Shown here: positions 20,556 to 60,876 of the stretch, piece after piece
Numbering within the stretch: the first letter of the stretch is position 1
Layout of the letters: each line of letters begins with the position of its first letter
Source: Paramuribaculum sp.
GTDB taxonomy: Bacteria > Bacteroidota > Bacteroidia > Bacteroidales > Muribaculaceae
NCBI GenBank assembly: GCA_045602165.1
Contig: JAZSAZ010000008.1
Span: forward strand, 61,152 to 125,151
Direction of reading: 5' to 3'
Length of the DNA: 64,000 nt
Program-made: the position numbers and the translations under genes
Notes under the pieces: generated by a model
The model's input: the letters and a program-made list of their open reading frames with translations, nothing else
What the model was told of the DNA's origin: nothing
Database searches by the model: none

Positions 20556-21755
20556 TTAAAATCGACATCCGACAATCAACGATACCGATTCGGTTGAGTT
20601 AAAGAATGTGTATTTACTGTTGAAAAACAAATCGCCGTCGAAACGCCCGTTCAACGATGCAAAGAGCGCTTTGTGATTATAAACAAACGAAAATTTCATT
20701 CTAAGATTCACCGCCAGCATATCTTTGCGTCCCTCGGAGGACTCGGAATAGGAATGTCGATAACCCACTGATGGCAACAGGGTTAGATTCGCCAGCCACC
20801 GGCGTGGTGATAATGCCCAGTTGTGTCCATACCCGGCTATGACCGAATAATCGGCAAATCTAAATCGATAACTTGGTTTTAATTCCGGCAAATATTCCAC
20901 CATATCTTTTGGTAAATCGGAGAAATCAAGATTCACCCGCTGATTATTAAAAGCAAAACCGAATATGGCAGAACCTGCTGATTTCAGTTGGTATTTTGAA
21001 TAACAATAGGCCGCAGCTTGGGAGTATTTTTTATAATTGAGAAAATAATATAATTCACCCGACAGCGCTTTATGCTCAATATTATCAAATTTGTAGTTAA
21101 ATCCATCAACATCATAATCTCCAAAATGCGTTATTCGAGCTCCGCCCGATGTGGACAATGCACTGATATTGGCCGAAAAGCGCGAACAAGTGAAGTTAAA
21201 ATTAAGGTTTGTTCGATTTGAATCATCGCCAAACCAATTATTGACCTTTGCCGTGTAACCAATACTCACAGCCATAAACGAAAGGTTCAACCCTAGGTCG
21301 CTATAAATATCCGAAATAATCCCTAAACGATTTTTAAAGCGATCGGAATGAAACGACAACATGTAGGACTCCATCCAATTATAGCTATTCAGAGTCAGCT
21401 TCCAATTTTTCCCTGTACCAACCACATACTCTTCGTCGTAGCTATTGAATGTTTGGTCGCCCCAATCATAAATCTTTAGGACAAACCGCGGAAATGCTGG
21501 ATAATTAATTCGCGGATCATGAATCCGAAATCCATTTGCAAAAAGCTGCTTATACCAAGGCTTATTGGCAAACGCTATTGAATCGGCAATTGCGGCTGAA
21601 TCGGCAATTGCCACTTCATAGCGAGGAATATTGTTTAGTTCAACATCACTACGCAAAGAATCGACACCAATCACAGGCAGCCCATATGACACACCTGAAA
21701 CCAATGCCGATAAAATCACAAATAAAGTTCTAACTATGCGTATCGAAATCTTCAT
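20556..21755 (-). CDS. Outer-membrane beta-barrel protein, DUF4421-like
   Basis: Signal peptide, amphipathic beta-strands and a C-terminal Phe (SLIVGCRF); motif YSQAAAYCYSKYQLKSAGS. Start moved to ATG 21755. Confidence 0.7.
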   Translation of the reverse strand: MKISIRIVRTLFVILSALVSGVSYGLPVIGVDSLRSDVELNNIPRYEVAIADSAAIADSIAFANKPWYKQLFANGFRIHDPRINYPAFPRFVLKIYDWGDQTFNSYDEEYVVGTGKNWKLTLNSYNWMESYMLSFHSDRFKNRLGIISDIYSDLGLNLSFMAVSIGYTAKVNNWFGDDSNRTNLNFNFTCSRFSANISALSTSGGARITHFGDYDVDGFNYKFDNIEHKALSGELYYFLNYKKYSQAAAYCYSKYQLKSAGSAIFGFAFNNQRVNLDFSDLPKDMVEYLPELKPSYRFRFADYSVIAGYGHNWALSPRRWLANLTLLPSVGYRHSYSESSEGRKDMLAVNLRMKFSFVYNHKALFASLNGRFDGDLFFNSKYTFFNSTESVSLIVGCRF

Positions 21756-21788: not shown

Positions 21789-22826
21789 CTAATACATAGG
21801 CTTAAAAGGTGAAGTTTTAACCAATTTAGCAGTAATATCTCCAACTATATTAGCCGTAGCGGATGTGACAAGTTTTAACACCGGTGCTCCCTCTCTCAAA
21901 TCACACTTTTTCAAATCAATAAAATAAACACCCGGATTTGTAACCACATCAAAATAGTAGCGAAGGTCACGAGTGTTAGCTAATGAGCGCCATTGAGTTG
22001 AAGAAACATTTGGTTCAGAATCAACAGTGTAGTGATATGGCACTGAAACATTCATCAATATGCTTCTGCAAATAGCCATTGCAGTGTCGGCATCAGCGGT
22101 TGGAGCAACATGGTGGGCAAAAAAATCAGCACGCACAAATCTATCGGCGCTTTTAACCGTTCCCGGAAGCATATTTTCACCCCCTATCTTTTTCCAATAT
22201 TCATTGATGGCACTCATCTGAGGATAAGCAGGGTCATTAGTTAAGACAGGCATATTTTCACCCTCATACACCATCACTTGCCCCTGATTAAACTCAAGAA
22301 CAGCAGTGCGCCCGGCAGCATCCGTAATTCCCCAGTGCAATGCCGAGACTGTTCCACCGTCAAATGTAGCGCCGGAAATAGTAAAATCTTGTTCTCGCAA
22401 TTTTTTCACAAGTTCAGGCGTAGTAGCATTCAGATCCAACATCCACGCGACAAACATGGATAGCGACATTGATGGTCTATCGAAAGTCTGACTATTAACG
22501 TAAACAGTTCCTTTACAGAACAATCCATTAACAACCAATCCTTTTTCATTCATCCCCTCGGTGACTCCGCCATCATAGCCCACAGCATATACTGCTCCAT
22601 ACTTGGACTTCCATTCAATCGAGCCGGGCTGAACATTACCCCTTTTGTACATTCCTCGAGGATAGACATACAAATTTGTCGGAATCGGCGACTTCCAGTC
22701 AAGTGACCGGCCAACGATTCTAAGATTACCAACACCTTGATAGACCACACGCGAACATGCCTCCGGCTCTGATGGAAATAGCACAGCAGCAATAGCAAAG
22801 GCAAAACCAATGATAAATCGTTTCAT
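21789..22826 (-). CDS. Secreted choloylglycine hydrolase / linear amide C-N hydrolase (bile salt hydrolase/penicillin V acylase family)
   Basis: Signal peptide ending PEA followed by the Ntn nucleophile Cys (CSRVVY); motifs GRSLDW, GMNEKGL, LTNDP and SADRFVR. Confidence 0.92.
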   Translation of the reverse strand: MKRFIIGFAFAIAAVLFPSEPEACSRVVYQGVGNLRIVGRSLDWKSPIPTNLYVYPRGMYKRGNVQPGSIEWKSKYGAVYAVGYDGGVTEGMNEKGLVVNGLFCKGTVYVNSQTFDRPSMSLSMFVAWMLDLNATTPELVKKLREQDFTISGATFDGGTVSALHWGITDAAGRTAVLEFNQGQVMVYEGENMPVLTNDPAYPQMSAINEYWKKIGGENMLPGTVKSADRFVRADFFAHHVAPTADADTAMAICRSILMNVSVPYHYTVDSEPNVSSTQWRSLANTRDLRYYFDVVTNPGVYFIDLKKCDLREGAPVLKLVTSATANIVGDITAKLVKTSPFKPMY

Positions 22827-27941: not shown

Positions 27942-27965
27942 GAATTAACCAACTAATAAATAATG

Positions 27966-28003
27966 TAACCGCCGCCCGGATTCGGGTGGCGGTTATCTTT
28001 TTC
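27966..28003 (+). terminator. Intrinsic terminator of pgk
   Basis: TAACCGCCGCCCG, GATT loop, CGGGTGGCGGTTA, then TCTTTTT. Confidence 0.85.
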
Positions 28004-28140: not shown

Positions 28141-28503
28141 ATGGAAATTAAAGGAAAAATCATTGCAGCTCTCCCCGAACAGTCAGGAGTTTCTAAGAGC
28201 GGTAACAATTGGAAAAAACGCGAATACGTGCTCGAAACCATGGAAACATATCCCAAAAAAGTTCATTTTGACCTTTTTGGAGACCGTGCTGACCAATATC
28301 CCTTAAATGTAGGCGAAGTAATCACCCTAAGTTTTGACATCAATAGCCGCGAATATAATGGCCGTTGGTTTACCAGCATCAGCGGATGGAAAGTGGATAA
28401 AGACGGAGCACAAGCTAATGAAAACACGGCTCCGGTGCCTCCTGTAGTTGACCCATTAGCTTCGCAGTTTAGTTCATCACCGGATGAAGACATTCCGTTC
28501 TAG
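28141..28503 (+). CDS. DUF3127 family protein (OB-fold/SSB-like) with an acidic DEDIPF tail
   Basis: MEIKGKIIA...WKKREYVLET.E.YPKK...SREYNGRWFT; C-terminus SPDEDIPF. Confidence 0.85.
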   Translation: MEIKGKIIAALPEQSGVSKSGNNWKKREYVLETMETYPKKVHFDLFGDRADQYPLNVGEVITLSFDINSREYNGRWFTSISGWKVDKDGAQANENTAPVPPVVDPLASQFSSSPDEDIPF

Positions 28504-28594
28504 TTAGAATATATCAATCGTATAAACCTTATCGCTCCACATAGTAATCCAATATATCTTAATTGCTATGTGGAGTTTTAATTTAATTTTCGCC

Positions 28595-29908
28595 ATGAAA
28601 CGATTAAGCATTTGCCTAATAGCACTAACATCTCTGATATTTTCAGCAAAAGCCGGCACCCCTTACCAGCCAACTGACGAGAATCTATCTGCACGAAAAG
28701 AATTTCGTGAAAGCGGCCTTGGAATCTTTATTCACTGGGGCATTTATAGCATGTTTGGACAAAATGAATGGTATCTGAATAGAAATGTCAGTGCTCAAGA
28801 GTATGCCAAAGCTGCCTCAGCATTCTATCCGGCAAATTTCAATGCTGCTGAATGGGTGAAAACATTTAAAGATGCCGGAGCCGAATATATTTGCTTCACA
28901 TCACGCCATCATGACGGATTCTCAATGTGGCACACCAAACAATCTGACTATAACATTGTTGACGCAACACCCTTCAAGCGCGATGTGCTTCGTGAAATTG
29001 TTGATGAATGTCAAAAACAAGACATGAAACTTCACTTATATTACTCACATATTGACTGGACTCGTCAAGACTATCCTCGCGGACGCACCGGCCTCAACAC
29101 CGGATGCGACATAAACAAGAGCGACTGGAAGAGTTATTATAAGTTTATGAACGCACAATTAACTGAATTGCTCACCGAATATGGCAAAATCGGAGCCATT
29201 TGGTTTGACGGTTGGTGGGACCACGACCAAGATTCAATCCCCTTTAACTGGGAATTGCCTGAACAGTATGCTCTAATACACAATCTTCAACCAAGTTGCT
29301 TGATTGGCAATAACCACCATCAAACACCCTTTGCAGGCGAAGACATCCAAATTTTTGAACGCGACCTTCCGGGCGAAAACACAGCCGGGCTCTCCGGTCA
29401 AGACATATCTCAACTTCCATTGGAAACATGCCTCACAATGAATCGCTCATGGGGATATAACGTAGAAGACCTTGAATATCTCCCCACCGAAGATTTGATT
29501 CGCACATTGGTGCGCACTGCCGGCAAAGGAGCGAATCTACTTTTAAATGTGGGACCGCAACCCAATGGTGAAATTCCGCAAGAAGCCATCAAACGCCTCA
29601 AAGAAATTGGCGAATGGCTAAAAATTTATGGCAGAACAATCAAAGGCACAGATAAGGCTGAGTTCCCGGAACAAGCATGGGGTGTTGCAACAAGCAAGGG
29701 TGACAAACTCTATATTCACGTTTTAGATTCAACAGCCACAGAAATCACAATTCCAATCAGCCACAAACGCATCAAATCAACCGCTGAATTTGTGTCGCGC
29801 AATGAATTAAAAGCTAAAAAGAGTGCTGACGGCAACGCCACAATTGACATCTCCACCATCCCCGTCATTGCACCCACTAGAGTCATTGAGCTAACATTAA
29901 AGAAATAA
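28595..29908 (+). CDS. Secreted alpha-L-fucosidase, GH29
   Basis: Signal peptide; motifs FIHWGIYS, TSRHHDGF, the nucleophile motif WFDG, and NLLLNVGP. Confidence 0.93.
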   Translation: MKRLSICLIALTSLIFSAKAGTPYQPTDENLSARKEFRESGLGIFIHWGIYSMFGQNEWYLNRNVSAQEYAKAASAFYPANFNAAEWVKTFKDAGAEYICFTSRHHDGFSMWHTKQSDYNIVDATPFKRDVLREIVDECQKQDMKLHLYYSHIDWTRQDYPRGRTGLNTGCDINKSDWKSYYKFMNAQLTELLTEYGKIGAIWFDGWWDHDQDSIPFNWELPEQYALIHNLQPSCLIGNNHHQTPFAGEDIQIFERDLPGENTAGLSGQDISQLPLETCLTMNRSWGYNVEDLEYLPTEDLIRTLVRTAGKGANLLLNVGPQPNGEIPQEAIKRLKEIGEWLKIYGRTIKGTDKAEFPEQAWGVATSKGDKLYIHVLDSTATEITIPISHKRIKSTAEFVSRNELKAKKSADGNATIDISTIPVIAPTRVIELTLKK

Positions 29909-29918
29909 TCCCCACTGT

Positions 29919-30671
29919 ATGCAACGACTACTTGAAATCTGTTGTTCCGACATTGAAAGTGTTGATGCAGCCATTGCCGGTGGCGCTGACCGCATAGAGC
30001 TATGCTCTGCCCTATCGGAAGGTGGAGTGACCCCCTCTGCCGGAATGATTTCGGAAGCAACCAAGCGAAAAATTCCGGTTAACGTTTTAATCCGTCCTCG
30101 CGGAGGTGACTTTGTGTACACAAAAACAGAAACCGAAATCATGCTTGCCGATATTGACATCGCCGCCTCATTAGGAGCCAATGGCGTGGTTATCGGCGCA
30201 TTAAGACCGGATGGATTAATTGACACTGAGATAAGTGCCTCTTTGATAAGCAAAGCCCAAAGCCTTGGACTTGAAACCACATATCACAGAGCCTTTGATA
30301 TATGTTCCGACCCGGATAGTTCACTTGAAACAATAATCAGCCTCGGCGCTAACCGCTTGTTAACATCCGGATTAGCGGCAACAGCCCTCAACGGAGCAGC
30401 GTTTATCAGCCGGCTACGCATAATTGCCGATAATCGCATTAAAATCATGGCCGGCTGCGGTGTAACACCTATGAATGTTGCAGAAATCATTCACAAAAGC
30501 GGTGTTGTAGAGATTCATGCGTCGGCAAAAACGCGCATTGAAAGTTCCATGTCATTTCGAAACATGAATGCAAAAATGGGCACTGCTGATGACTACTCCA
30601 GAACTATAACCTCAAAAGAGATTGTCAATAACTTATCTAAAATAATCCACGAATATGACACAAATGCTTAA
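29919..30671 (+). CDS. cutC: CutC-family TIM-barrel protein
   Basis: Motifs LEIC, GGADRIELCSALSEGGVTPS, IRPRGGDFVY, HRAFD and LLTSG. Confidence 0.95.
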   Translation: MQRLLEICCSDIESVDAAIAGGADRIELCSALSEGGVTPSAGMISEATKRKIPVNVLIRPRGGDFVYTKTETEIMLADIDIAASLGANGVVIGALRPDGLIDTEISASLISKAQSLGLETTYHRAFDICSDPDSSLETIISLGANRLLTSGLAATALNGAAFISRLRIIADNRIKIMAGCGVTPMNVAEIIHKSGVVEIHASAKTRIESSMSFRNMNAKMGTADDYSRTITSKEIVNNLSKIIHEYDTNA

Positions 30672-33210
30672 AATCACGCTCATGTCTATTTTAGTGTTGA
30701 CATCGGGGATACATCTTCATGCAACAACACCCGCAGACAAACAGGTTAATGATGAGCAAAAGTATCTAACTGAGCTTTATAAAATAATGAATTATGCCGA
30801 CAAGATAGACCGAAGCAAAGAATTCTATCTTGAAAATGCAATTCGTCCGGCATTGCAAGCCAGAGAGGAAATGCCTTGGGGCAAGACCATCCCTGAACGT
30901 GAATGGATTCATTTTGTTCTCCCACTTCGAGTTAACAATGAAGCCATTGATGCACATCGTCCGGTTTTCTATGCCGAATTGCGCGATCGCATTAAAAACA
31001 TGTCAATGACCGATGCTATTTTGGAGATAAACCATTGGTGTCACGAAAAAGCCACATATCAACCCTCCGATAGCCGCACACACTCCCCTTTGCAGACTAC
31101 AAGTTCAGCCATTGGTCGATGTGGCGAAGAATCAACATTTGGAGTAGCAGCTCTGAGAGCAATGGGCATTCCGGCTCGCCAGGTTTACACTCCACGCTGG
31201 GCACACACCGATGACAACCATGCATGGGTAGAAGCTTGGTGTGACGGTCGTTGGGTATTCTTAGGAGCTTGCGAACCGGAACCGGTGCTTAATCTTGGTT
31301 GGTTTAACGACCCTGCTGCTCGCGGAATGTTGATGCACGCACGCGTACCGGGCAGCCACTATGACGGTCCGGAAGAAGTCCTTAATCGAATGAATGGCAA
31401 CACCGACATCAATGTCACCTCAAACTATGCCCCGGTTGACACTCTTGTCGTCACTATTTTAAATCAAGACAACTCGCCCGTTCAGGGAGCAACTGTCACA
31501 TTTAGAGTTTATAACTACGCCGAATTCTATCCCATTGCGACAAAACAGTCCGATAGTAACGGCAATGTCTCAATTGTGGCTGGGCTTGGTGATTTAATAG
31601 TATGGGCAACAGCTCCCGATGGCTCTTCATTTGGGATTGCAAAAGCGTCAATTGGAAAAGACCGTAAAATTGATGTGACACTCAATTTCAATGACAAGAC
31701 CACTTGCCAAATGGACTTCGACATAGTGCCCCCAATTCAACGCGATGCTTCTGTTGCAGTTGACCCGGCCATGCGCGCAGAAAATGACCGCCGCAAAGCC
31801 TACGAAGACTCTATTCGCAATGCCTACACAGCAACATTCCCCTCGCAAAACGCAGTATCTGAATTAGCAGCAACGCTAAATGTCGATGCCGAAAAGCTTT
31901 GGGAGTTCATCAAGAAATCTCGTGGCAATCACGCCACTATTTCTACATTCCTCAAAAACACAGCACCCAAAGACAGAGCAAAAGCAATGCTACTCTTGGG
32001 CGCAATCAGCGACAAAGACCTAACCGACATTCCATTAGAGGTTCTCTGCGACCAATTAAAAGCCGAAGGTGAGGGTGTGTTCTTTGCACAATATGTGATG
32101 TCGCCCCGCATTGCTGCCGAAGAGTTAACCCCCTACCGCCAATTTTTCAATAGTGTCATCTCTAAAAAACAGATGAACACATACAAGAAGAATCCACAAA
32201 AATGGGTGGAATGGGTTGCAAAAAACATTGATTCATCACTTGATTGGTATCCAGCACAGGCCTCTATGAGTCCTCGCGCTGTGTGGGAATCCAGAAAAAC
32301 ATCAACTCTTTCACGCGATATTTTCTTTGTTGCCGCAGCACGAGCCATGAACATTCCCGCTCGCATTGACCCGGTAACAATGAAAACACAATGGGCCGAC
32401 GAGAACCAGACATGGCACGATGCCACCTTTACAAAGGTGTCAACTAACAATTCAACTCAGCAAGGGGCTCTCGTTCTCAATCCGGCAAAAGATAATGCAG
32501 TTGAAAACCCGAAATATTACAGCAACTTCACCATTTCAAAAATTGTCAATGGTGAGCCACAACTCCTCAACTATCCTGATTTTATTCCATTAAGCGAAAG
32601 CTTTGAAAAGGGTGAAATGCTTGATTACGGCCAATATATGATAACAACCGGTCAGCGATTGGCCGACGGAACCGTTCTGTCACGCATCAACATCATCAAT
32701 ATCAACTCTGCCTCACAAACTGATACCCTTGCAATCCGCAAGAACACAAGCGGCATTCAAGTAATTGGTAATTTTGATTCGGAAAGCCTTTTCAAACCTA
32801 TTGGTGAATCAGCTGCAAAATCTCTTCTTTCAGCTACCGGACGCGGGTATTATGTCCTTGGAATGATCCGCCCGAACCACGAGCCTTCAAACCACACCCT
32901 GCGCGACATTGCAGCCGAAACCACCGCACTGGAAGCTTGGGGACGTCCAATTGTCTTGCTATTTGAGGATGAAGAACGAGCCGCACGCTACGACTCTTCA
33001 ATAATGCCACAAATGCCCTCAACCATAATTACAGGGACAGATGTTGACGGCTCTATTCTCAATAAACTTAAAGCAATTCCGGGAGTCAGCGGCAACGATG
33101 CTCCAATCTTCATCATTGCCGACACATTCAATAGAGTAATCTTCGTTTCACAGGGCTACACTATTGGCATTGGAGACAGAATTACTGAAATTGCAAAACA
33201 ACTGAAATAG
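30655..33210 (+). CDS. Secreted transglutaminase-like-domain protein with Png1/NGLY1-like catalytic motifs
   Basis: Signal peptide; GRCGEE (Cys156), RAMGIPAR, NHAWVE (His189) and RWVFLGACE; a second Cys-less copy (RDIFFVAAARAMNIPAR). Overlaps cutC by 17 nt. Confidence 0.85.
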   Translation: MTQMLKITLMSILVLTSGIHLHATTPADKQVNDEQKYLTELYKIMNYADKIDRSKEFYLENAIRPALQAREEMPWGKTIPEREWIHFVLPLRVNNEAIDAHRPVFYAELRDRIKNMSMTDAILEINHWCHEKATYQPSDSRTHSPLQTTSSAIGRCGEESTFGVAALRAMGIPARQVYTPRWAHTDDNHAWVEAWCDGRWVFLGACEPEPVLNLGWFNDPAARGMLMHARVPGSHYDGPEEVLNRMNGNTDINVTSNYAPVDTLVVTILNQDNSPVQGATVTFRVYNYAEFYPIATKQSDSNGNVSIVAGLGDLIVWATAPDGSSFGIAKASIGKDRKIDVTLNFNDKTTCQMDFDIVPPIQRDASVAVDPAMRAENDRRKAYEDSIRNAYTATFPSQNAVSELAATLNVDAEKLWEFIKKSRGNHATISTFLKNTAPKDRAKAMLLLGAISDKDLTDIPLEVLCDQLKAEGEGVFFAQYVMSPRIAAEELTPYRQFFNSVISKKQMNTYKKNPQKWVEWVAKNIDSSLDWYPAQASMSPRAVWESRKTSTLSRDIFFVAAARAMNIPARIDPVTMKTQWADENQTWHDATFTKVSTNNSTQQGALVLNPAKDNAVENPKYYSNFTISKIVNGEPQLLNYPDFIPLSESFEKGEMLDYGQYMITTGQRLADGTVLSRINIININSASQTDTLAIRKNTSGIQVIGNFDSESLFKPIGESAAKSLLSATGRGYYVLGMIRPNHEPSNHTLRDIAAETTALEAWGRPIVLLFEDEERAARYDSSIMPQMPSTIITGTDVDGSILNKLKAIPGVSGNDAPIFIIADTFNRVIFVSQGYTIGIGDRITEIAKQLK

Positions 33211-33236: not shown

Positions 33237-33263
33237 AAGGGCCGCGCTGTGTGCGCGGCCCTT
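33237..33263 (+). terminator. GC-rich hairpin closing the fucosidase-cutC-TGase unit
   Basis: AAGGGCCGCGC, TGTGT loop, GCGCGGCCCTT. Confidence 0.7.
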
Positions 33264-52141: not shown

Positions 52142-54826
52142 ATGAGACTGATATTCAACATAGATTACCACACCAACGATGGTGAATGCATCTGCATCAG
52201 CGGCAATATCCCCGAATTAGGCAGCAACGATAGTTCTAAAGCCGTCATGCTACGCCCTATGGGGAACGGAAAAAATGCACTCGAATTAATAATTTCCCCG
52301 GCCACATCATCAATAAGCTATCGCTATCTCATCATGAGAAGAGATGGAACCCGCCGAGAAGAATGGGGTTCAAGCCGAACCATTCGTCTTGATTCACGAC
52401 TTCCGGAAGCCACTATATATGATATTTGGCAGGATCAACCAATCGACAAACAATTCCACACAAAAGCATTCACTGAATGTATTTATGGGCGCCGATTCCA
52501 AGAAGCGCCGACAACAATAAAACCAAACACCACCAACATTCGTGTTAATGCTCCTAAAATAGCCCCCGGAGAGGTGTTGGCAATAAGCGGTTCATGTGAG
52601 TTCCTCGGTAATTGGCAACCTGAAAATGCATTGGTGATGAGCGATGCCGAATTCCCGCTATGGAGCGTTGAACTACCTTCTGACATCACCGATGGTCAAC
52701 ACATCGAGTACAAATTTCTCACACTTAGAAAATCCGATCTATCCCTGATTAACTGGGAAGATGGAGGGAACAGAATCTTACATCAGCTGAAATCAAAATC
52801 ATTTGGCGCCACTATTATCTCAGAGCATAACTTCAAAGACTCTGACACACACCAATGGCGCGGAGCCGGTGTTGCTATACCTGTGTTTTCACTCCGAAGC
52901 AACGATGACTTTGGGGTTGGCGAATTTGCTGACATCAAACTATTGGCTGATTGGGCTGCATCAACCGGCCAACAAATCATCCAGCTACTCCCAATCAATG
53001 ATACTACCATGAGTTACTCATGGACTGACTCATACCCCTACAATGCCAACTCATGCTTTGCGCTGCATCCAATGTATCTACGCTTGCAAGATATGGGACA
53101 TCTCAACGACTTTGAACAGCAATCTCGCTATGATGCCTTGGCTCGCGAATTAAATGAATTGCCCTCCGTGGACTATGAACGAGTAAATCGTTTTAAAAAC
53201 GAATTTACCCGCTTGCTTTTCAAGCAGCAAGGCGAAGCAGAAATGACATCTACAGAGTTTAAAAAATTCGTTGATGCAAATATCTCTTGGCTGAAACCTT
53301 ATGCCGCTTTCTGCACATTACGCGATTTACACAAAACTGCCGACACCAGCGCATGGGAGGAATATGCCACTTATAATCCTGAAAACATTGAACGATTTAT
53401 CTCTTGCCACGAACAAGAAATAAATTATGTTTACTACATACAATATCACCTCGACCGCCAATTGCGCGATGCGTGTCAGTATGCTCATTCTCTCGGCATT
53501 GCCATAAAAGGCGACATTCCAATCGGCATTTCACGAAACAGCGTTGACGCTTGGACCAATCCCGAACTGTTCAACCTTGAAAGCTCAGCCGGTGCTCCCC
53601 CGGATGACTTTTCTATCATGGGACAGAATTGGGATTTCCCGACATATAATTGGGATGTGATGATGCGCGACGGTTTTTCTTGGTGGAAAGCACGATTCAA
53701 AAAAATGGCTGAATATTTTGACGCCTACCGCATTGACCATGTGCTTGGCTTCTTCCGCATTTGGCAAATCCCACGCAATGCAATTCATGGTCTTCTCGGA
53801 GTGTTCAATTCAGCCCTGCCAATGACACCCGAAGAGATGCGCCACTGCTTTGATTTCTATTTCCGACGTGAAGAATTTACGTCGCCCTACATTGTTGACA
53901 AGCAGATTAATGAAATTTTTGGTGATTTAGCCGATGAAATTCGCGCAAACTACCTGATTCCAATAGACAACCAGCGCTATCAACTCCGAATTGAGTATTC
54001 TACACAGCGACAAGTGAATAATCGCTTTGCCAACAACTTGCAAGACCAAAGAATCAGCCGAATACACAATGGTTTAATGCGCCTCATTGATGATGTTCTT
54101 TTTATTGAAGATCCATATCAAAAGGGCAAATATCATCCACGAATCTCAGCCCACACAACATATATTTATAAATCACTCAACGATTATGAGCAGCTGACAT
54201 TCAATCGCTTATATGACCACTTCTACTATCATCGCCACAATGAATTTTGGCAAGAAAAAGCGATGACAAAGCTACCCTCTCTCATTGAGTCTACCCAAAT
54301 GCTATGCTGCGCTGAAGACCTTGGAATGATTCCGGCATGTGTGCCCGACGTAATGAACCAACTTGGCATTCTTTCTCTTGAAATACAGAGAATGCCAAAA
54401 GACTCAAGCACCATATTTGCGGAAACCAACAAGTATCCCTACCTCTCTGTGTGCACAACTTCTACTCACGATATGCCAGGTATTCGTCAATGGTGGGAAT
54501 CCGACTCGAAGACCACATTGAATTTCTACAATCAAGTTATAGGCAACAAAGGCGATGCACCTTATTTTGCAGAGCCATGGATATGCCGTAGGATTGTGGA
54601 AATGCACTTGGAATCGCCATCTATGCTTTGCATTTTGCCCCTACAAGATTGGCTGGCGACCGACGGAACACTCCGCCGACAGGATCCACGCGAAGAGCAG
54701 ATTAATGTACCAGCCAACCCGCATCACTATTGGCGCTATCGCATGCACATGACATTAGAGAAACTTCGCTCGGAAACTCAATTCAACCGATCAATTTCGG
54801 ACATGATTGCAAGCTCCGGACGATAG
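52142..54826 (+). CDS. malQ: 4-alpha-glucanotransferase, GH77 (DPE2-like, two N-terminal CBM20-like domains)
   Basis: Motifs QLLPINDT, KGDIPIG, GAPPDDFS, YRIDHVLGFFRIW, AEDLG and TSTHD. Confidence 0.95.
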   Translation: MRLIFNIDYHTNDGECICISGNIPELGSNDSSKAVMLRPMGNGKNALELIISPATSSISYRYLIMRRDGTRREEWGSSRTIRLDSRLPEATIYDIWQDQPIDKQFHTKAFTECIYGRRFQEAPTTIKPNTTNIRVNAPKIAPGEVLAISGSCEFLGNWQPENALVMSDAEFPLWSVELPSDITDGQHIEYKFLTLRKSDLSLINWEDGGNRILHQLKSKSFGATIISEHNFKDSDTHQWRGAGVAIPVFSLRSNDDFGVGEFADIKLLADWAASTGQQIIQLLPINDTTMSYSWTDSYPYNANSCFALHPMYLRLQDMGHLNDFEQQSRYDALARELNELPSVDYERVNRFKNEFTRLLFKQQGEAEMTSTEFKKFVDANISWLKPYAAFCTLRDLHKTADTSAWEEYATYNPENIERFISCHEQEINYVYYIQYHLDRQLRDACQYAHSLGIAIKGDIPIGISRNSVDAWTNPELFNLESSAGAPPDDFSIMGQNWDFPTYNWDVMMRDGFSWWKARFKKMAEYFDAYRIDHVLGFFRIWQIPRNAIHGLLGVFNSALPMTPEEMRHCFDFYFRREEFTSPYIVDKQINEIFGDLADEIRANYLIPIDNQRYQLRIEYSTQRQVNNRFANNLQDQRISRIHNGLMRLIDDVLFIEDPYQKGKYHPRISAHTTYIYKSLNDYEQLTFNRLYDHFYYHRHNEFWQEKAMTKLPSLIESTQMLCCAEDLGMIPACVPDVMNQLGILSLEIQRMPKDSSTIFAETNKYPYLSVCTTSTHDMPGIRQWWESDSKTTLNFYNQVIGNKGDAPYFAEPWICRRIVEMHLESPSMLCILPLQDWLATDGTLRRQDPREEQINVPANPHHYWRYRMHMTLEKLRSETQFNRSISDMIASSGR

Positions 54827-54829
54827 GCA

Positions 54830-56854
54830 CTACCAATGAGGGGTGATTGATATAAAAGCTTCGAAATTAATCCCCGGCATCGGGTGAGAAAGCACTGAGA
54901 TATACTCCTCATCAAACAGATTATTAATGGTAATTTTAGCCGATAGGTCGAGCGCATTCCAACGGAATATGCGTTCGACACTTATATTATTCATATAATA
55001 AGCCGGGAGCGAGCCTGTTAGCGACTCGGAATTATCCGACATTGTGAATCGGCGGCTATAATGAAGCCATTTGTAGTGCAGAGTCCAATCACGCCACGAC
55101 AAGCGTGCATTGGCCCCGGCAGAATATTGCGGCACATAGGGCAATTGCTTCCCAACAGAATTATCGGCCGATGAATATTGCTCACCATTATTTATGGATG
55201 GGGTCCATGAAAAACCGGCATCAACCCCTGCTTGCCACCCTCTGCCCAGCGACAAGGCTAAATCGGCCTTAACCTCAATCCCATAGGAATGAACGCTCTT
55301 AATATTGCGCGGCGAAAAGAACCCTTTAGTTGTTGGCAACCACAAAATCCAATCTTCAATCTTTGAATCAAACCATGTTATTGACCCCTTCAATGCATAG
55401 CGCTGTGACGAACCAATAGCAAATTGTGCACCCACATCATAGCTCCACCCCATTTCAGGACGCAGATGCGGATTCCCTCCGGGGATAAAATAAAGGTCGT
55501 TGAGCGATGGATAGCGATAGTTTCGCGAAGCCGATGCCTTTACCACAAGATTCCATTCGGGCACAAGAGTGAAATCGACAAAAAGAGCCGGTATAGGCTG
55601 TGATAGTTCATCGCCAATCAAATCGCCTCTCAACACCGCCGAAAGGCCTAAAAGATTCGTTGGCCGCCATTTTGCAGTCAAAGCCCCTGTGAGTTCAAAC
55701 CGTCCTTTGTCATATCCGAAGATATAATTTCTCGGCGACACTTCAAATGGGTTGTTATCTGTGCTACGCACAAAATATTGATGGGCCTTTGCCGAAGCTG
55801 TAAACACCCACTTTTGATTCGGATAGAAATCAACCAGAGCAGCACCATAGGCAGTGTGTGACGTCGAGCGCGAACGAGTCATCACAGCTAACGAGCCATT
55901 GCCGGTGTCGCGCTGATAGTCATAAGCCATTCGAGTGTAGGCATAGCCGGCATCGCCTTGCACTCTCCAAAGTCCAAACTGACGATGCCACGAAACAACG
56001 CCGCGAAATGTTTGTTCTCGTTGACGATTCTCAAATTCGCTTTCATCGCCATAGTCTGTGGTCAACATTGGCAACTCCCTATTGGAATTGACATACCAGA
56101 GTTTGAGCGCAGCATGGTCGCCCTGCTCTGAATCATAATACACCTCTTGCAATAGATGGAAATCACAAAATGCGCCACTCCGATTCCGCTCTTCAGGATA
56201 ATATTGGCCTATGATATTATGATTGCTATCATAGATATTTTCTTTTTTATCGCGGTTGGTGTATTTATAGTCATTGGCCGATGTTGACAGAACGGCACGC
56301 GTTGAAGTTCGCCACTTCTTGCCACCATAATTAACCCGCAAAAACTCATCGAATGTTGAAAACGAACCAACCCCTTGCACATATTGCGCCGACCATCCCA
56401 AAGACTCAACACCCTTTGTGGCAAGCTGCACAGCTCCGCCGAGCCCACCTCCGGTTGCAGCCACAGAAGAGCTTCCGTGTAACAACGATGCATCATCAAT
56501 AAAATAAGCCGGGATCAGCGAGAAATCGGTCATTCCCATCATAGGTGCATTGATGTTCATTCCATTCCATGTCACAGCGGTGTGGGCCGGAGAGGTTCCG
56601 CGAAAAGAGACTGTGGAAAGAGTGGCACGCCCATAATTCTTCACAAATAGAGATGAATTATAAGCCAAAACATCGGCCATGGACAGCGACACATTCTCTT
56701 TAAGGGCCACCGAGTCGATTAATGTCAATTGTCGGCCAATATCAGCCATGGGGCGCACAGCATTGGCAGTGACCTCCGGCAGTGAGATTGTTCGCTGAGC
56801 CATCACCAAAAGCGATGACACAGCAACAATAAATATTATGGTTCCTAATCTCAT
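54830..56854 (-). CDS. btuB: TonB-dependent cobalamin transporter (BtuB-like)
   Basis: TonB-box-like LPEVTA; plug motif FVKNYGRATLSTVSFRGTSPAHT.VTWNG; downstream of btuG and a cobalamin riboswitch. Confidence 0.88.
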   Translation of the reverse strand: MRLGTIIFIVAVSSLLVMAQRTISLPEVTANAVRPMADIGRQLTLIDSVALKENVSLSMADVLAYNSSLFVKNYGRATLSTVSFRGTSPAHTAVTWNGMNINAPMMGMTDFSLIPAYFIDDASLLHGSSSVAATGGGLGGAVQLATKGVESLGWSAQYVQGVGSFSTFDEFLRVNYGGKKWRTSTRAVLSTSANDYKYTNRDKKENIYDSNHNIIGQYYPEERNRSGAFCDFHLLQEVYYDSEQGDHAALKLWYVNSNRELPMLTTDYGDESEFENRQREQTFRGVVSWHRQFGLWRVQGDAGYAYTRMAYDYQRDTGNGSLAVMTRSRSTSHTAYGAALVDFYPNQKWVFTASAKAHQYFVRSTDNNPFEVSPRNYIFGYDKGRFELTGALTAKWRPTNLLGLSAVLRGDLIGDELSQPIPALFVDFTLVPEWNLVVKASASRNYRYPSLNDLYFIPGGNPHLRPEMGWSYDVGAQFAIGSSQRYALKGSITWFDSKIEDWILWLPTTKGFFSPRNIKSVHSYGIEVKADLALSLGRGWQAGVDAGFSWTPSINNGEQYSSADNSVGKQLPYVPQYSAGANARLSWRDWTLHYKWLHYSRRFTMSDNSESLTGSLPAYYMNNISVERIFRWNALDLSAKITINNLFDEEYISVLSHPMPGINFEAFISITPHW

Positions 56855-56862
56855 CTCTACAC

Positions 56863-57927
56863 TTAGTTCTTCCAACAAAAAGCTCCGGGAGTAACCCCGA
56901 CAGTGAAATCGCCCAACAATTTACCCTCAGCAGAGTAGTGATATATAATACCCGGCTGCTGATAATCAATTGCATCAGCCACATAAACATCATTAGTCAC
57001 AGGGTCAACAGTGAGCCCATAATAGATGGTTTGACGCGAACGAATCAAAGGGCGCAATGGCAAACGCGTTGCCCCAACATCCATACGCCACACATCATCG
57101 TTTATCCAATATATAGCATCTGCATCTTTATTTATAGCAAGCTCAGAAGGAGTGTCGTCCGGATAAAAATCAAATTTGGCATCAACCTCAAACGTGGCAA
57201 GGTTAATGCAATATAAAGCAGGAGTTTCAGCCCCCATAGGCGAACCCTTAAAGCCCCCATCACAAATGGTCCACAATCTATTATATTTATCTGCCACGAT
57301 TGAATTTGGCTGCGGCCCTACGGTCAATTCATCAACAACCATATCTGTGTGGGTGTCGATTTTCAAAATGCGATTTTGATAACTCCAACAGTTGACATAG
57401 ACATATCTACCCACTTGAACCATCTGCTCGGTTGACCCGGTGGCCGAATTCATTGACGGCACATCGATATAACCAGCGATTTCATAACGCTTAGGATTGA
57501 TAATGGCTATTCTATTATCCCACAACTGAGTCACATAGGCTTTTTCAGGAGAAACGAAATGAATGTAACGCGGCGATGTAAAGCCGGTTATGCGCCCTTG
57601 TTCGCGAAATGTCAGCGGATCAATAGCAAACACCACATGGGAATGGTTAACAACTATCCAACACAAACCGCCGGCCATGGTCATTGACTGACCGACATCA
57701 CCCAGACGCATCCCATTTGCTCGATAAAACACCTCATTGGTACATGTATCAGCCTCTACGTCATAATAGCTCAGAGTGGCATTCCCATATTGAAAATTGC
57801 CCTCACAAACTATAAAAAGGCCATGCCCCGAGGCCTTAAAATCCTCGGGGCTGCCATATTCCCACTCCATGCACGACGACATTAGCACACATAGAAGCAG
57901 GGCGCTTATTTGACAGAAAAGTTTCAA
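56863..57927 (-). CDS. btuG: Surface lipoprotein beta-propeller B12 scavenger (BtuG-like)
   Basis: Lipobox MSSC; EGNFQYGNATLSYYD, FTSPRYIHF, STEQMV, NCWSYQNRILKID and DAIDYQQ closely recall Bacteroides BtuG. Confidence 0.9.
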   Translation of the reverse strand: MKLFCQISALLLCVLMSSCMEWEYGSPEDFKASGHGLFIVCEGNFQYGNATLSYYDVEADTCTNEVFYRANGMRLGDVGQSMTMAGGLCWIVVNHSHVVFAIDPLTFREQGRITGFTSPRYIHFVSPEKAYVTQLWDNRIAIINPKRYEIAGYIDVPSMNSATGSTEQMVQVGRYVYVNCWSYQNRILKIDTHTDMVVDELTVGPQPNSIVADKYNRLWTICDGGFKGSPMGAETPALYCINLATFEVDAKFDFYPDDTPSELAINKDADAIYWINDDVWRMDVGATRLPLRPLIRSRQTIYYGLTVDPVTNDVYVADAIDYQQPGIIYHYSAEGKLLGDFTVGVTPGAFCWKN

Positions 57928-58781
57928 TTCAATCTGATTGTGATATTATCTATTGCCAGATACGATGGTGTGTTAAGACCATAATCGCCCAAATCAGAGC
58001 CATCAAAATCAAAAACAACCTTATTTACAGGGCCTAATCCCACGAGCGACCACGACTGCCAAGCAGCAGCGATGTCAACTACATTTGAACCGACACGATA
58101 ATCGCAAAGATATTTCTCAACAGTTGCAGTTTCATTGCCCAATGCATCATAGCCTATGGCCCTAACCTTAAACCAACCATTAACATCTCTAAAATGGCGT
58201 CCGGGATGGATACCAAAAGGATTCCCCTCAGTGATTACACCATAAACATAGGCTGTGGGGCAAATCTCCATATTTTCAATCACACACTCAGCACCTGCAG
58301 AAAATTTAAAAGATGCTGCACTATCATCATCGCCATAAACAATTGCGAATGTATCAGAGCCTTGAGCTCCGGCACCTTGATTTGCACCATCGGAAGAGAT
58401 GGTGTTATAAACCGAAAGTTGATTTAGATATGATTTCCACCAATCGCCGGTATCTCCAACTCTATTTGAACGATGATTCCACTGCGAAAGGGCAATTCCG
58501 CCTCCTGAAAACTCATAAACTCCGGTCCAAGCTGAAAGATTTACTCCAAATTCAAATGAAACATCACCGATTTCCGACATTGGAATAACACCTTTGGTGA
58601 ATTTCTCTCCACCATAGTTTGCATACAAATTTTCACCATAAGGTGACGGACCTCCAAGCAAAATGCCGGTGTTCTCAAAATCAATCACACATCTTTCTGG
58701 AGCATTAGGTTCGTCATCGGAACAAGCCCCAAACATCATTGATGCACAGCAAAGAGCAAAAATTACTTTAAGATTTTTCAT
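57924..58781 (-). CDS. DUF4465-family lipoprotein (BtuJ-like B12-binding protein)
   Basis: Lipobox FGAC followed by acidic SDDEP; C-terminal G.YGLNTPSYLAIDNI; first gene after the riboswitch. Confidence 0.75.
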   Translation of the reverse strand: MKNLKVIFALCCASMMFGACSDDEPNAPERCVIDFENTGILLGGPSPYGENLYANYGGEKFTKGVIPMSEIGDVSFEFGVNLSAWTGVYEFSGGGIALSQWNHRSNRVGDTGDWWKSYLNQLSVYNTISSDGANQGAGAQGSDTFAIVYGDDDSAASFKFSAGAECVIENMEICPTAYVYGVITEGNPFGIHPGRHFRDVNGWFKVRAIGYDALGNETATVEKYLCDYRVGSNVVDIAAAWQSWSLVGLGPVNKVVFDFDGSDLGDYGLNTPSYLAIDNITIRLN

Positions 58782-58956
58782 CTGTTTCTCCTTTAATGAG
58801 TTAATAAATTATATATTAGCGGGAAACAGCAGAAAAGCAACAAGAAATTCAATCTCGCTATCTGAAATCAATTTTAAAGATTTTCGCCTCAGACAACCTA
58901 TTCTTGCCCCCATAGCCCATTTTCCCGCAGGCGCCTTCGTTGGGTTTTGCTTTGAT

Positions 58957-59107
58957 AGGTTTTCTGACTTATTCCTGATTCAACAGCCTTCTCAGATTGC
59001 GATATCCAATGGCTCTACATTGCTGAATCATCCTACATCTCATGCAGGGGGAAAACACAGCAGCGGGTACTGTCCCGGATTCTAACCGGATTCCCTTGTC
59101 AAAGCAC
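58957..59107 (-). promoter_or_regulatory. Cobalamin riboswitch aptamer
   Basis: The minus strand reads AAGGGAA-TCCGGTTAGAATCCGG-GACAGTACCCGCTGCTGT...GCCATTGG...GAGAAGGC...AAGTCAGAAAACCT (B12 box), upstream of btu genes. Confidence 0.92.
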
Positions 59108-59109
59108 TG

Positions 59110-59140
59110 CAAAGGTATATATTCAAATTTAATTACGCAA
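59110..59140 (-). promoter_or_regulatory. Internal promoter for the riboswitch-btuJ-btuG-btuB unit
   Basis: -7 TACCTTTG (59110-59117) and -33 TTG (59138-59140) with a 20-nt spacer, just past the btuH-like stop. Confidence 0.75.
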
Positions 59141-59145
59141 CTACT

Positions 59146-60855
59146 TTATAATTTTTTTATGCCAAGCACTTCAGTTGACAATTCTCCAAGATTATCACAT
59201 TTCGTCATAATGCCGGTTTGGATTTTCACAAAATCAATAGACTCAAGATTAACTGTTGAGCCGTTTGGCAACACTGCATTAGAAATCTTGAACCCAATCC
59301 ACACACCGGCGCCACCATGAGTGTCGCCATCTAGCAAATCCGATCCCAAGTTATCGGCATAGCCCCAATCAAACGGATTGTTTGACCACATACCGGTCAC
59401 CGGATGTTTTTCATTTCGCGGTGGAAGTTGAGAGCCAAAAAGGGTGTAAGATTCCGCTTCAACCCACACCGGATAATAAGATGGCTGATCATGCACTCCC
59501 GCCAAATAATCTATTGTTCCAACCATTCCATAAATATCACTCCACTGCACCGCCATCGCATCACCGGCAGGCTTATAATAGGTGACAGAATACACACTTG
59601 AAGAGCCATTGTCGGTGAAATCACTTCCGCGAAGTTCATACCACGCATCATCAGGCTCTCCATTGCCATTAACATCTTGCATCACCCACACAATCCCAGG
59701 CTCACTCGACCCGGTGATGGCATTGCCCATTATAGCAAAGTCATAATCTCCTCCACTGTTTGAAACACTGTTATTGAACTTTGCAATCAAATAACCGCCC
59801 CATGCACCAAGCGAAACAAACTTACCGGAATCCATTCTATCATTGGCCCAATTTATAGCCGCCTCATGAGTTGAAATCTCAGTGGGCATCCCACCAATAC
59901 TGCTATTTTCACCGATAAACTGCCCCGGCGCAGGCAAATATTCAATAATCGAAGCTACAGAAGAAACACCATCACTAATAGTGGCTTTTTCCGCAACATT
60001 TATAATCATAGATGCCACTACCCCTTGAGCTTCAACACAAATAGTATATCGCCCCGCCTTTTCAGCTGAAAAAACGAACAATGCTCCTCTACAGTCTGCA
60101 CTCTCACCATTAACACTCCATTTAAGTTCTTCAGCCTTAACATTCTCCCCTACTACAGACAGAGCCACCGGACGGCCAACAATAGTGGTTCGCACATTTT
60201 CCGAATATAACGCAGACAATGGCATAAAATTCAATTTTACAGGAAGTTCCTCTACAACTTTTACACGAAACTCCTTTTCTGCCACACCGGCACTATTCGC
60301 TGCTCGAATCACAATAGAATATTCGCCACATACATCGCGGCAAAACTCAAATGATTCTCCTTCAGCCATTTTTTCGCCATCAACAAGCCAATCAACAGTC
60401 AAGGTCTCCCCCACAGTCACATTACCAAAAAGAGGCTTAAAAGTGTAACTCGAACTCTTCAATATTGTTAGCCCGTCAATCGGTAAAGCTAAAGAGATTG
60501 CCGGAGGCATCGGGGCCGTTACATCAATTCGCACCTCCTCACGGTCCACTCCGGCCGGATTTGACACCGTGAGCAACACATAGTGTTGCCCTGCAAGATT
60601 CCAAGTATGAGTCCACACCGGCCCCCTACACACCACAGTTCCATCATCGAGAGTCCACACATATTCAGCCCCGATTCCATTTTCCACCTCAGGCGCAAGA
60701 GTCAACACATCTCCAAGATTCACCTCATAGATGCCATCTTCGTGACTAAAAGTTATAATAGGCTTGTCGCCCACGGTAAACACATCATCCTTGTTGCATG
60801 CAGTAAGGCCCACAAAAAAAGTCACTATAACTGCCCAAAATAGAATTCGCTTCAT
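59146..60855 (-). CDS. PKD/Ig-repeat surface lipoprotein with a C-terminal BtuH-like B12-binding domain
   Basis: Lipobox LTAC followed by NKDD; PKD-like repeats; EYLPAPGQFI, VSLGAWGGY, SEPGIVWVMQDVNGNGEPDD and WGYADN. Confidence 0.78.
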   Translation of the reverse strand: MKRILFWAVIVTFFVGLTACNKDDVFTVGDKPIITFSHEDGIYEVNLGDVLTLAPEVENGIGAEYVWTLDDGTVVCRGPVWTHTWNLAGQHYVLLTVSNPAGVDREEVRIDVTAPMPPAISLALPIDGLTILKSSSYTFKPLFGNVTVGETLTVDWLVDGEKMAEGESFEFCRDVCGEYSIVIRAANSAGVAEKEFRVKVVEELPVKLNFMPLSALYSENVRTTIVGRPVALSVVGENVKAEELKWSVNGESADCRGALFVFSAEKAGRYTICVEAQGVVASMIINVAEKATISDGVSSVASIIEYLPAPGQFIGENSSIGGMPTEISTHEAAINWANDRMDSGKFVSLGAWGGYLIAKFNNSVSNSGGDYDFAIMGNAITGSSEPGIVWVMQDVNGNGEPDDAWYELRGSDFTDNGSSSVYSVTYYKPAGDAMAVQWSDIYGMVGTIDYLAGVHDQPSYYPVWVEAESYTLFGSQLPPRNEKHPVTGMWSNNPFDWGYADNLGSDLLDGDTHGGAGVWIGFKISNAVLPNGSTVNLESIDFVKIQTGIMTKCDNLGELSTEVLGIKKL

Positions 60856-60876
60856 ACTTAAAACCATAAAACGTCG

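Follow-up and report, generated by a model that had tools for sequence, protein, structure and literature searches.

Within a 64,000-nucleotide (nt) stretch of DNA from Paramuribaculum sp. (contig JAZSAZ010000008.1; this whole stretch is the window in what follows), three co-directional open reading frames (ORFs) on the + strand at 28595-33210 encode a GH29 fucosidase, a CutC-family protein and a secreted protein of 851 amino acids (aa) with a transglutaminase-like core, here referred to as TGL. Our survey of related loci shows that GH29, CutC and TGL constitute a genuine and widely conserved functional unit. Sequence comparison places TGL in a separate family of the transglutaminase superfamily, with what is predicted to be an unusual active site. 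We propose that the fucosidase, a member of subfamily GH29A, removes fucose in the periplasm, that TGL would then hydrolyse the amide at a glycosylated Asn by means of Cys156 and His189, and that CutC would take part in a cytoplasmic step; we put the probability of this reading at about 0.4. The genomic context supports a role for the module in glycan catabolism, probably that of N-glycan remnants.

Conserved gene order is one line of evidence for a unit. Two sets of loci were compared: the best 80 from species-representative genomes, whose ORFs were clustered and searched with the window proteins, and the best 80 metagenomic loci around distant TGL members with ~40% identity to the query. Neither set is random, and counts over all related loci refer to n = 167. 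Linkage was scored solely from fusions and from neighbours that were specific, closely spaced and co-directional; generic enrichment of glycosidases near TGL was not used as evidence because Bacteroidales genomes are glycosidase-rich. Over all related loci, CutC adjoins TGL in 84 of 167, in two orientations, and GH29A lies near TGL in about 40. Within the first set, CutC is found less than 5 kb from TGL in 57/80 loci, nearly always directly adjacent, and the GH29 orthologue is present in 38/80, with every other gene family at no more than 10/80. The co-directional order GH29-CutC-TGL accounts for 28 of these loci and CutC-TGL without GH29 for 9 more, while TGL followed by a convergent CutC occurs in 19, of which 9 have GH29. 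Species with the module include Phocaeicola massiliensis and Bacteroides intestinalis (L035, L062). CutC is again the commonest neighbour in the distant set (25/80). This linkage is far beyond chance, and it bears out the association that an earlier note on this DNA, made from the letters alone, had suggested surveying across Bacteroidota; GH92, also named there, lies near TGL in few lineages. The remaining recurrent neighbours (FtsH, LepA, LpxA/C, RNase Y, ion transporters, YidC and CTP synthase) have housekeeping roles; their recurrence was judged to reflect lineage synteny, and they were set aside.

The most telling evidence is that the partners also occur as gene fusions. A single ORF of 1244 aa joins a signal peptide and GH29 directly to a TGL part that lacks a signal peptide of its own; it belongs to a cluster of 8 members, including one seen on 24 contigs, and a convergent CutC overlaps the 3' end of the fusion. 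CutC and TGL form single ORFs in three separate clusters at 50% identity, one of which is found on six contigs. Since adjacency has been kept through rearrangement and through gene fusion, the three genes function together. In the CutC-TGL fusions the TGL leader persists as a hydrophobic stretch in the interior of the protein, which predicts a signal-anchor with CutC inside and TGL outside. Such a bitopic topology, predicted for P0126, P0127 and P0148 (L169-L171, 4612-8136), is unusual for two catabolic enzymes.

In the window, GH29 (28595-29908, +) is followed after 10 nt (29909-29918) by CutC (29919-30671, +), which overlaps TGL (30655-33210, +) by 17 nt (30655-30671). A GC-rich hairpin of 11 bp, 9 of them GC, begins 27 nt past the TGL stop (33237-33263, +) and closes the unit as a candidate terminator with a weak T-tail. 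The earlier note had pointed to this coupling, to the terminal hairpin and to signal peptides on the fucosidase and the 851-aa protein; all of these features are present, the signal-peptide-like N-termini having been assigned by sequence inspection. GH29 has a second possible ATG upstream, at 28568 (28568/28595-29908, +). The window derives from an uncultured Bacteroidales bacterium of the sheep gut. All sequencing runs that matched it were metagenomes of DNA, from sheep and from other gut samples, and offer no RNA evidence for co-transcription. Upstream of the unit, pgk is closed by another strong hairpin at 27965-27996. Between this terminator and GH29 lies a DUF3127 gene (PF11325, 2.7e-33; 28141-28503, +), which holds the same position in 13/80 related genomes and could be either a part of the unit or independent of it.

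Translated from 28595, the GH29 protein opens with MKRLSICLIALTSLIFSAKA, by inspection a typical signal peptide with cleavage before the G. It matches PF01120 in Pfam at 3.9e-106 and aligns over its full length with the PDB entries 9eu1, 9eu4 and 9eu2 (E 1e-171 to 1e-162; 3.5e-171 for 9eu1 over residues 23-435). This close match along the whole length to characterised members assigns it to GH29 subfamily A, the BF3242/TfFuc1 group, and on the same alignments it is identified as the orthologue of the characterised BF3242 of Bacteroides fragilis and TfFuc1 of Tannerella forsythia. Both are GH29A exo-alpha-L-fucosidases with highest activity on 2'-fucosyllactose, and both also act on fucose (Fuc) linked to N-acetylglucosamine (GlcNAc) as Fuc-α1,6-GlcNAc and Fuc-α1,4-GlcNAc (PMC11796335). 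The substrates of TfFuc1 are described as small, unbranched and α1,2 or α1,6 linked; it also cleaves Fuc-Gal (Gal, galactose), the product of an O-glycosylation fucosyltransferase, which mimics the O-glycan that the bacterium itself makes (PMC8698959).

TGL matches PF01841 at 2.9e-24 (85.8 bits vs a cut-off of 23), and its only matches in Pfam and NCBIfam are Transglut_core and a weak Big_1. DSSP applied to the AlphaFold2 (AF2) model places Cys156 at the start of helix 154-169 and His189 at the start of strand 190-196, which in the model corresponds to the canonical geometry of the transglutaminase fold. Known hydrolytic members of this fold act on side-chain amides. The earlier note had called the protein a candidate Png1/NGLY1-like enzyme, after the eukaryotic cytosolic peptide:N-glycanase (PNGase), on the strength of five motifs, and all of them were located (AIGRCGEEST 152-161, RAMGIPARQV 168-177, DDNHAWVEAW 186-195, GRWVFLGACE 198-207 and LNLGW 212-216). 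The PNGase motifs that it set out were likewise accurate; GRCGE, ARxV, HxWxE, RW, ACE and GW line up with mouse PNGase, and we agree with its choice of C156 as the candidate nucleophile. By phmmer, TGL residues 126-216 align to mouse PNGase with an E of 0.009, and within the PF01841 core the residues of PNGase that stand opposite C156 and H189 are its Cys and its His.

The label itself did not survive closer comparison. At the position of the triad Asp, TGL reads RWVFLG204ACE where mouse PNGase reads RWLHCDACE, and Gly204 is invariant in 138/138 family members. Png1 activity requires a zinc-binding domain with two CxxC motifs (PMC9102325); no CxxC occurs in all 851 aa of TGL, whose N-terminal 260 aa contain Cys at 129, 156, 196 and 206 only. 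Pfam gave no PUB, PAW or Rad4 domain in TGL, and the protein carries a signal peptide, whereas Png1 is cytosolic. The profile and fold comparison that the note had advised placed the core nearer to transglutaminase-like proteins other than PNGase. In profile search A1 the best match was 3isr, a transglutaminase-like putative cysteine protease from Cytophaga hutchinsonii (5e-4 vs 0.04 for PNGase 2f4m), and with the more diverse family profile A3 the PNGase match faded (0.033 for 3isr vs 1.2 for 2f4m). Full-length Foldseek returned only 3e8v and thioredoxin-fold proteins and was uninformative on the core, so a separate model of residues 26-262 was used for the core fold search. It ranked 3isr first (5.8e-4), followed by Streptococcus pyogenes TglA (6e-3), PNGase 2f4o (1.7e-2) and then animal transglutaminases, all of them weak matches (TM-score ≤ 0.33) because the active-site loops are poorly predicted.

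Three of the motifs, RAxGxxARxV, HxWxE and RW, are found in 3isr and in animal transglutaminases as well and are therefore not PNGase-specific. The PNGase-flavoured features of TGL come down to three, namely GRCGE, the CE that follows the Asp position (xCE) and the downstream GW. The contention that the motifs go beyond a generic transglutaminase match thus holds for these three and fails for the superfamily-wide remainder. Membership of Png1/NGLY1 was rejected on nearest relative, triad Asp, zinc site, and export and accessory parts; TGL may still have a PNGase-like mode of action. Searches of Pfam and NCBIfam gave no match of TGL to PNGase F-type enzymes or to the N-terminal nucleophile (Ntn) glycosylasparaginases.

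Beyond the core, TGL is a multidomain protein (AF2 model; predicted local distance difference test score, pLDDT, 83.5; active-site loops 134-154, 182-188 and 204-225 of low confidence). Its signal peptide, MTQMLKITLMSILVLTSGIHLHA, spans residues 1-23 (30655-30723, +) and was assigned by inspection, the model having a low pLDDT across residues 1-25; in many homologues a lipobox Cys stands here instead, and the distant alignment shows a consensus Cys near position 19. An N-terminal helical subdomain with a conserved NHWCHEK motif (residues 26-133; 30730-31053, +), delimited by the model and by conservation, precedes the transglutaminase/papain-like catalytic core (residues 134-232; 31054-31350, +), which is defined by PF01841, conservation and AF2 secondary structure. 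Within the core, Cys156 is encoded at 31120-31122, at the helix N-terminus, His189 at 31219-31221, at the strand start, and Gly204 at 31264-31266 (all +). An immunoglobulin (Ig)-like beta-sandwich region follows (residues 240-357; 31372-31725, +), the second half of which corresponds to the solved B. fragilis fragment 3e8v (5e-19 to 6e-30 in profile and sequence searches; Foldseek TM-score 0.95). The all-helical middle domain (residues 371-524; 31765-32226, +) is seen in the model and gave no family match in Pfam.

A second, degenerate transglutaminase-like core (residues 531-600; 32245-32454, +) was recognised from a second PF01841 stretch and from manual alignment of SRDIFFVAAARAMNIPAR to the first core. 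Its nucleophile position is occupied by Thr549, so it is presumably non-catalytic. This internal, apparently inactivated duplicate is conserved throughout the TGL family. It is followed by a modelled beta-sandwich domain (residues 603-692; 32461-32730, +) and by a C-terminal thioredoxin-fold domain without CxxC (residues 700-851; 32752-33207, +), for which Foldseek returned ResA, DsbE and Prx and a profile search returned 2m72 (4e-4). Although the fold matches that of the ResA/TlpA/DsbE oxidoreductases, the CxxC redox motif is absent: the domain has no cysteine, and an invariant E743-P744...H747 (E743-P-S-N-H747) stands at the usual redox-motif position. We therefore regard residues 700-851 as a predicted non-redox, thioredoxin-like module.

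Among 138 diverse TGL members, the first core is the most conserved part of the protein, with 41/99 positions at least 95% conserved. R141, R155, C156, G157, E158, H184, N188, H189, W191, E193, W200, G204, E207, P208 and W216 are invariant. An invariant cluster of His and Cys residues (H127, C129, H130, H184, H189, C156 and C206) falls in the low-confidence loops of the model. A conserved C129-C206 disulfide was considered and dropped, because either Cys can be lost without loss of its partner and the two show no co-variation. The family is large: at least 8000 sequences, and more, scored in one search. When members are grouped at 50% identity, ~991 clusters match with E < 1e-30 and share the same architecture, which is kept down to ~35% identity. 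It was found only in Bacteroidia, and every source annotates its members as 'transglutaminase domain-containing protein' or 'hypothetical'. The earlier note knew of no biochemical characterisation of the family, and our literature search likewise turned up nothing on it, nor any account of a bacterial PNGase with the transglutaminase fold or of a link between CutC and TGL.

CutC belongs to the TIM-barrel family PF03932 (3e-71; 239.5 bits vs a cut-off of 23.3) and is related to human CUTC (PDB 3iwp, 3.5e-59). It scores below the cut-off of NCBIfam NF008603, the E. coli-type equivalog (210.9 bits vs 311), and is therefore not an equivalog of the enterobacterial protein. As it lacks a signal peptide, it is predicted to be cytoplasmic. 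Cu(I) binding has been reported for human CUTC. Together with the family name, the invariant His/Cys cluster of TGL and the thioredoxin fold at its C-terminus, this could suggest a metal or redox unit, in which CutC would be a copper protein, TGL a periplasmic metal- or thiol-dependent factor and the fucosidase a mere neighbour. We consider this very improbable. The GH29-TGL fusion and the glycosidase, LacI and ROK contexts described below speak against it, the thioredoxin-like domain is cysteine-free, and C129 and C206 do not co-vary. Moreover, the copper phenotype of E. coli cutC has reportedly been attributed since to MicL, a small RNA encoded within the gene.

Evidence for the kind of substrate comes from more distant relatives. 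At 36-41% identity, TGL is found in a co-directional cluster of the order GH92-MFS-GH130-GH92-CBM9-TGL-CutC, and in a second cluster of the order GH97-GH92-MFS-GH130-TGL-CBM9-PMI-GHL10-CutC-GH92, where PMI denotes mannose-6-phosphate isomerase. The combination of GH92 alpha-mannosidases, GH130 phosphorylase, MFS permease and PMI is that of N-glycan-core or mannoside loci of the BT1033 type. In three more loci GH92 directly follows TGL behind a LacI-type regulator (LacI-TGL-GH92), and a ROK-family kinase lies directly upstream of GH29 in 6 loci and also precedes a CutC-TGL fusion. In Xanthomonas, the cutC gene XAC3091 is part of the nix cluster for plant N-glycans and lies one locus tag from the asparaginase XAC3092, which was linked to N-glycan catabolism by the authors who described the cluster (PMC6718126, PMC5700972). 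The GH92/GH130/MFS/PMI clusters, the Xanthomonas nix cutC and the activity of GH29A on Fuc-α1,6-GlcNAc independently suggest the link to N-glycans and glycopeptides that the earlier note had drawn. No GH18, GH85 or PNGase F gene was present in the 7-kb flanks of the GH92/GH130 clusters.

Several other neighbours of TGL were recorded. Uncharacterised CBM9_1-like (PF06452) and GHL10 (PF02638) proteins flank it in the GH92/GH130 clusters (L086, 5877-6971; L087, 9651-10751 and 11775-12857). One lineage has a glutaminase-like gene, another amidase, after CutC (TGL+ CutC- glutaminase-; L101-L106, L135). A gene for a NamZ-type exo-N-acetylmuramidase (PF07075/PF20732) lies divergently beside TGL, with NUDIX downstream, in L084, L099 and L139.

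The module might instead recycle the bacterium's own periplasmic or outer-membrane O-glycoproteins, the O-glycans of which contain fucose and mannose (Man) in Bacteroidota, GH29A trimming the fucose and TGL degrading the glycopeptide. The housekeeping rather than polysaccharide utilization locus (PUL) setting of the module would fit such a role, as would the presence of the family throughout Bacteroidia, including free-living species, and the occurrence of NamZ, a cell-wall recycling enzyme, beside TGL in 3 loci. The O-glycan of B. fragilis contains Man and Fuc, abundant periplasmic proteins are glycosylated, and the Fuc-Gal cleaved by TfFuc1 is the product of an O-glycosylation fucosyltransferase. 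The GH130, MFS and PMI neighbours, on the other hand, point to beta-mannosyl-GlcNAc, that is the N-glycan core; the Xanthomonas CutC context is one of plant N-glycan catabolism; and O-glycosylation is phylum-wide while TGL was found only in Bacteroidia. On balance we regard O-glycoprotein recycling as quite improbable.

We favour the removal of N-glycan remnants by a fucosidase and an amidase acting in sequence. The periplasmic fucosidase would remove core or terminal fucose from glyco-asparagine peptides, which may be leftovers of endoglycosidase and protease action or intact small N-glycopeptides. TGL, with Cys156 as nucleophile, would then hydrolyse the amide at the glycosylated Asn, most probably that of the GlcNAc-Asn side chain. 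Cleavage there, which is PNGase/glycosylasparaginase chemistry, would yield Asp together with a glycosylamine, which breaks down into sugar and ammonia. In place of the Cys-His-Asp triad and zinc of Png1, TGL might use a Cys-His dyad, or Glu207 or another residue as the third member. Substrate binding could be the task of the beta-sandwich domains, of the inactive second core and of the thioredoxin-like domain, and the released sugars would enter the cell, where a ROK kinase (in some lineages) and cytoplasmic CutC might act downstream.

The main rival to this proposal is that TGL is a glycopeptide-directed cysteine peptidase that cuts the backbone beside glycosylated residues and spares the sugar-Asn amide. 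Protease activity is the classical prediction for transglutaminase-like proteins of bacteria, and it holds for some of them, LapG-type enzymes for example. The closest solved relative, 3isr, is annotated as a putative cysteine protease, although it is itself uncharacterised, and the genomic context agrees with a peptidase as well as with an amidase. A backbone peptidase would, however, leave unexplained the GRCGE, xCE and GW likeness to PNGase, and also the parallels with other systems in which GH29, an amidase and a kinase, or CutC and an asparaginase, occur together. The absent Asp would be just as unusual in a protease. We hold the peptidase to be unlikely, while treating it as a serious contender.

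Several observations weigh against the amidase proposal itself. The GH29A orthologues prefer α1,2 linkages, as in 2'-fucosyllactose, and also cut the Fuc-Gal mimic of an O-glycan. The position of the triad Asp is an invariant Gly, the zinc site essential to Png1 is absent, PNGase is not the closest relative of TGL, and the active-site loops of the AF2 model are of low confidence. The GH92 and GH130 contexts are confined to a small number of lineages (9 of 167 loci for GH92, 3 for GH130), and in most genomes the module lies among housekeeping genes and not in a PUL. TGL members are found in free-living Bacteroidia, some of them without the neighbours described here. CutC also exists in organisms that do not catabolise N-glycans, and its role is therefore not restricted to the proposed pathway. 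A stronger version of the proposal, in which TGL would be the first member of a bacterial family of transglutaminase-fold glyco-asparagine amidases with a zinc-free Cys-His(-Glu) site and CutC a dedicated cytoplasmic enzyme of the same pathway, is put forward as a tentative and rather doubtful extension. Functions outside those named here are a slim possibility.

In the gut, host and dietary glycoproteins are degraded mainly by Bacteroidales, for which no description exists of what becomes of the glyco-asparagine stub once an endoglycosidase has acted. The present work adds an abundant, uncharacterised family, TGL, that is linked to CutC through both adjacency and gene fusion, a connection not encountered in the literature we searched. 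The module also provides a testable way into CutC, whose conservation extends from bacteria to humans; should CutC prove to be a dedicated enzyme of the pathway, this would be the first biochemical role for its family. If TGL does cleave the sugar-Asn amide, it would represent a third structural solution to that reaction in bacteria and a possible tool for glycoproteomics with a different tolerance of core fucose.

Elsewhere in the window, a cluster encoding a TonB-dependent receptor and DUF5074, DUF4465 and PKD-domain proteins occupies 54830-60867 (-). A similar set (TonB-DUF5074-Peripla_BP_2-FecCD-ABC) lies directly downstream of TGL in the distant relatives L081, L098 and L127. A choloylglycine-hydrolase-family gene at 21789-22826 (-) (PF02275, 1.6e-34; bile-salt-hydrolase-like, with an N-terminal Cys after the leader) adjoins a DUF4421 gene at 20556-21755 (-). 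A GH77 4-alpha-glucanotransferase with CBM20 starch-binding domains is encoded at 52142-54826 (+; PF02446, 6.9e-149).

Among known systems, Png1/NGLY1 shares with TGL a transglutaminase-like core in which the Cys lies at the N-terminus of a helix and the strand that follows carries the His, as well as GRCGE, xCE and GW; it is among the top solved relatives and cleaves the same bond as in the chemistry proposed for TGL. TGL differs in having Gly for the triad Asp, in lacking the CxxC zinc domain and the Rad23/PUB/PAW parts, in being secreted, and in its five additional domains (an Ig-like, a helical, a beta-sandwich and a thioredoxin-like one, plus the dead second core); Png1 is also not its closest relative. 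The protein that matches the core best in both sequence and fold, 3isr, is a single-domain protein of 293 aa that keeps the canonical Asp and reads GVCRDF where TGL reads GRCGEE. PNGase F, F-II and A/H+ are, as TGL is predicted to be, secreted bacterial enzymes, and they remove N-glycans at GlcNAc-Asn, but their folds and catalytic residues are unrelated to those of TGL, which they do not match in Pfam. For bacteria, the reviews consulted list only these types and the Ntn enzyme AGA, and no transglutaminase-fold enzyme. The nix cluster of Xanthomonas resembles the module in having CutC among N-glycan-degrading genes, one locus tag from a candidate glyco-Asn amidase; it belongs to another phylum, has no TGL, and its candidate amidase is of the asparaginase family. 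The alf-2 system of Lactobacillus casei processes Fuc-α1,6-GlcNAc-Asn with AlfC (a GH29A fucosidase), the glycosylasparaginase AsnA2 and the kinase SugK (PMC6960285). AsnA2 is an Ntn-hydrolase, whereas TGL would be a thiol enzyme of another fold; the steps in L. casei are cytoplasmic, whereas here the fucosidase and TGL are predicted to be exported; and alf-2 has no counterpart of CutC. The two systems nevertheless have in common a GH29A fucosidase, an amidase (a candidate one here) and a kinase (ROK-type, in some lineages here), with defucosylation preceding cleavage of the amide. The same order is followed in lysosomes, where FUCA1 acts before AGA.

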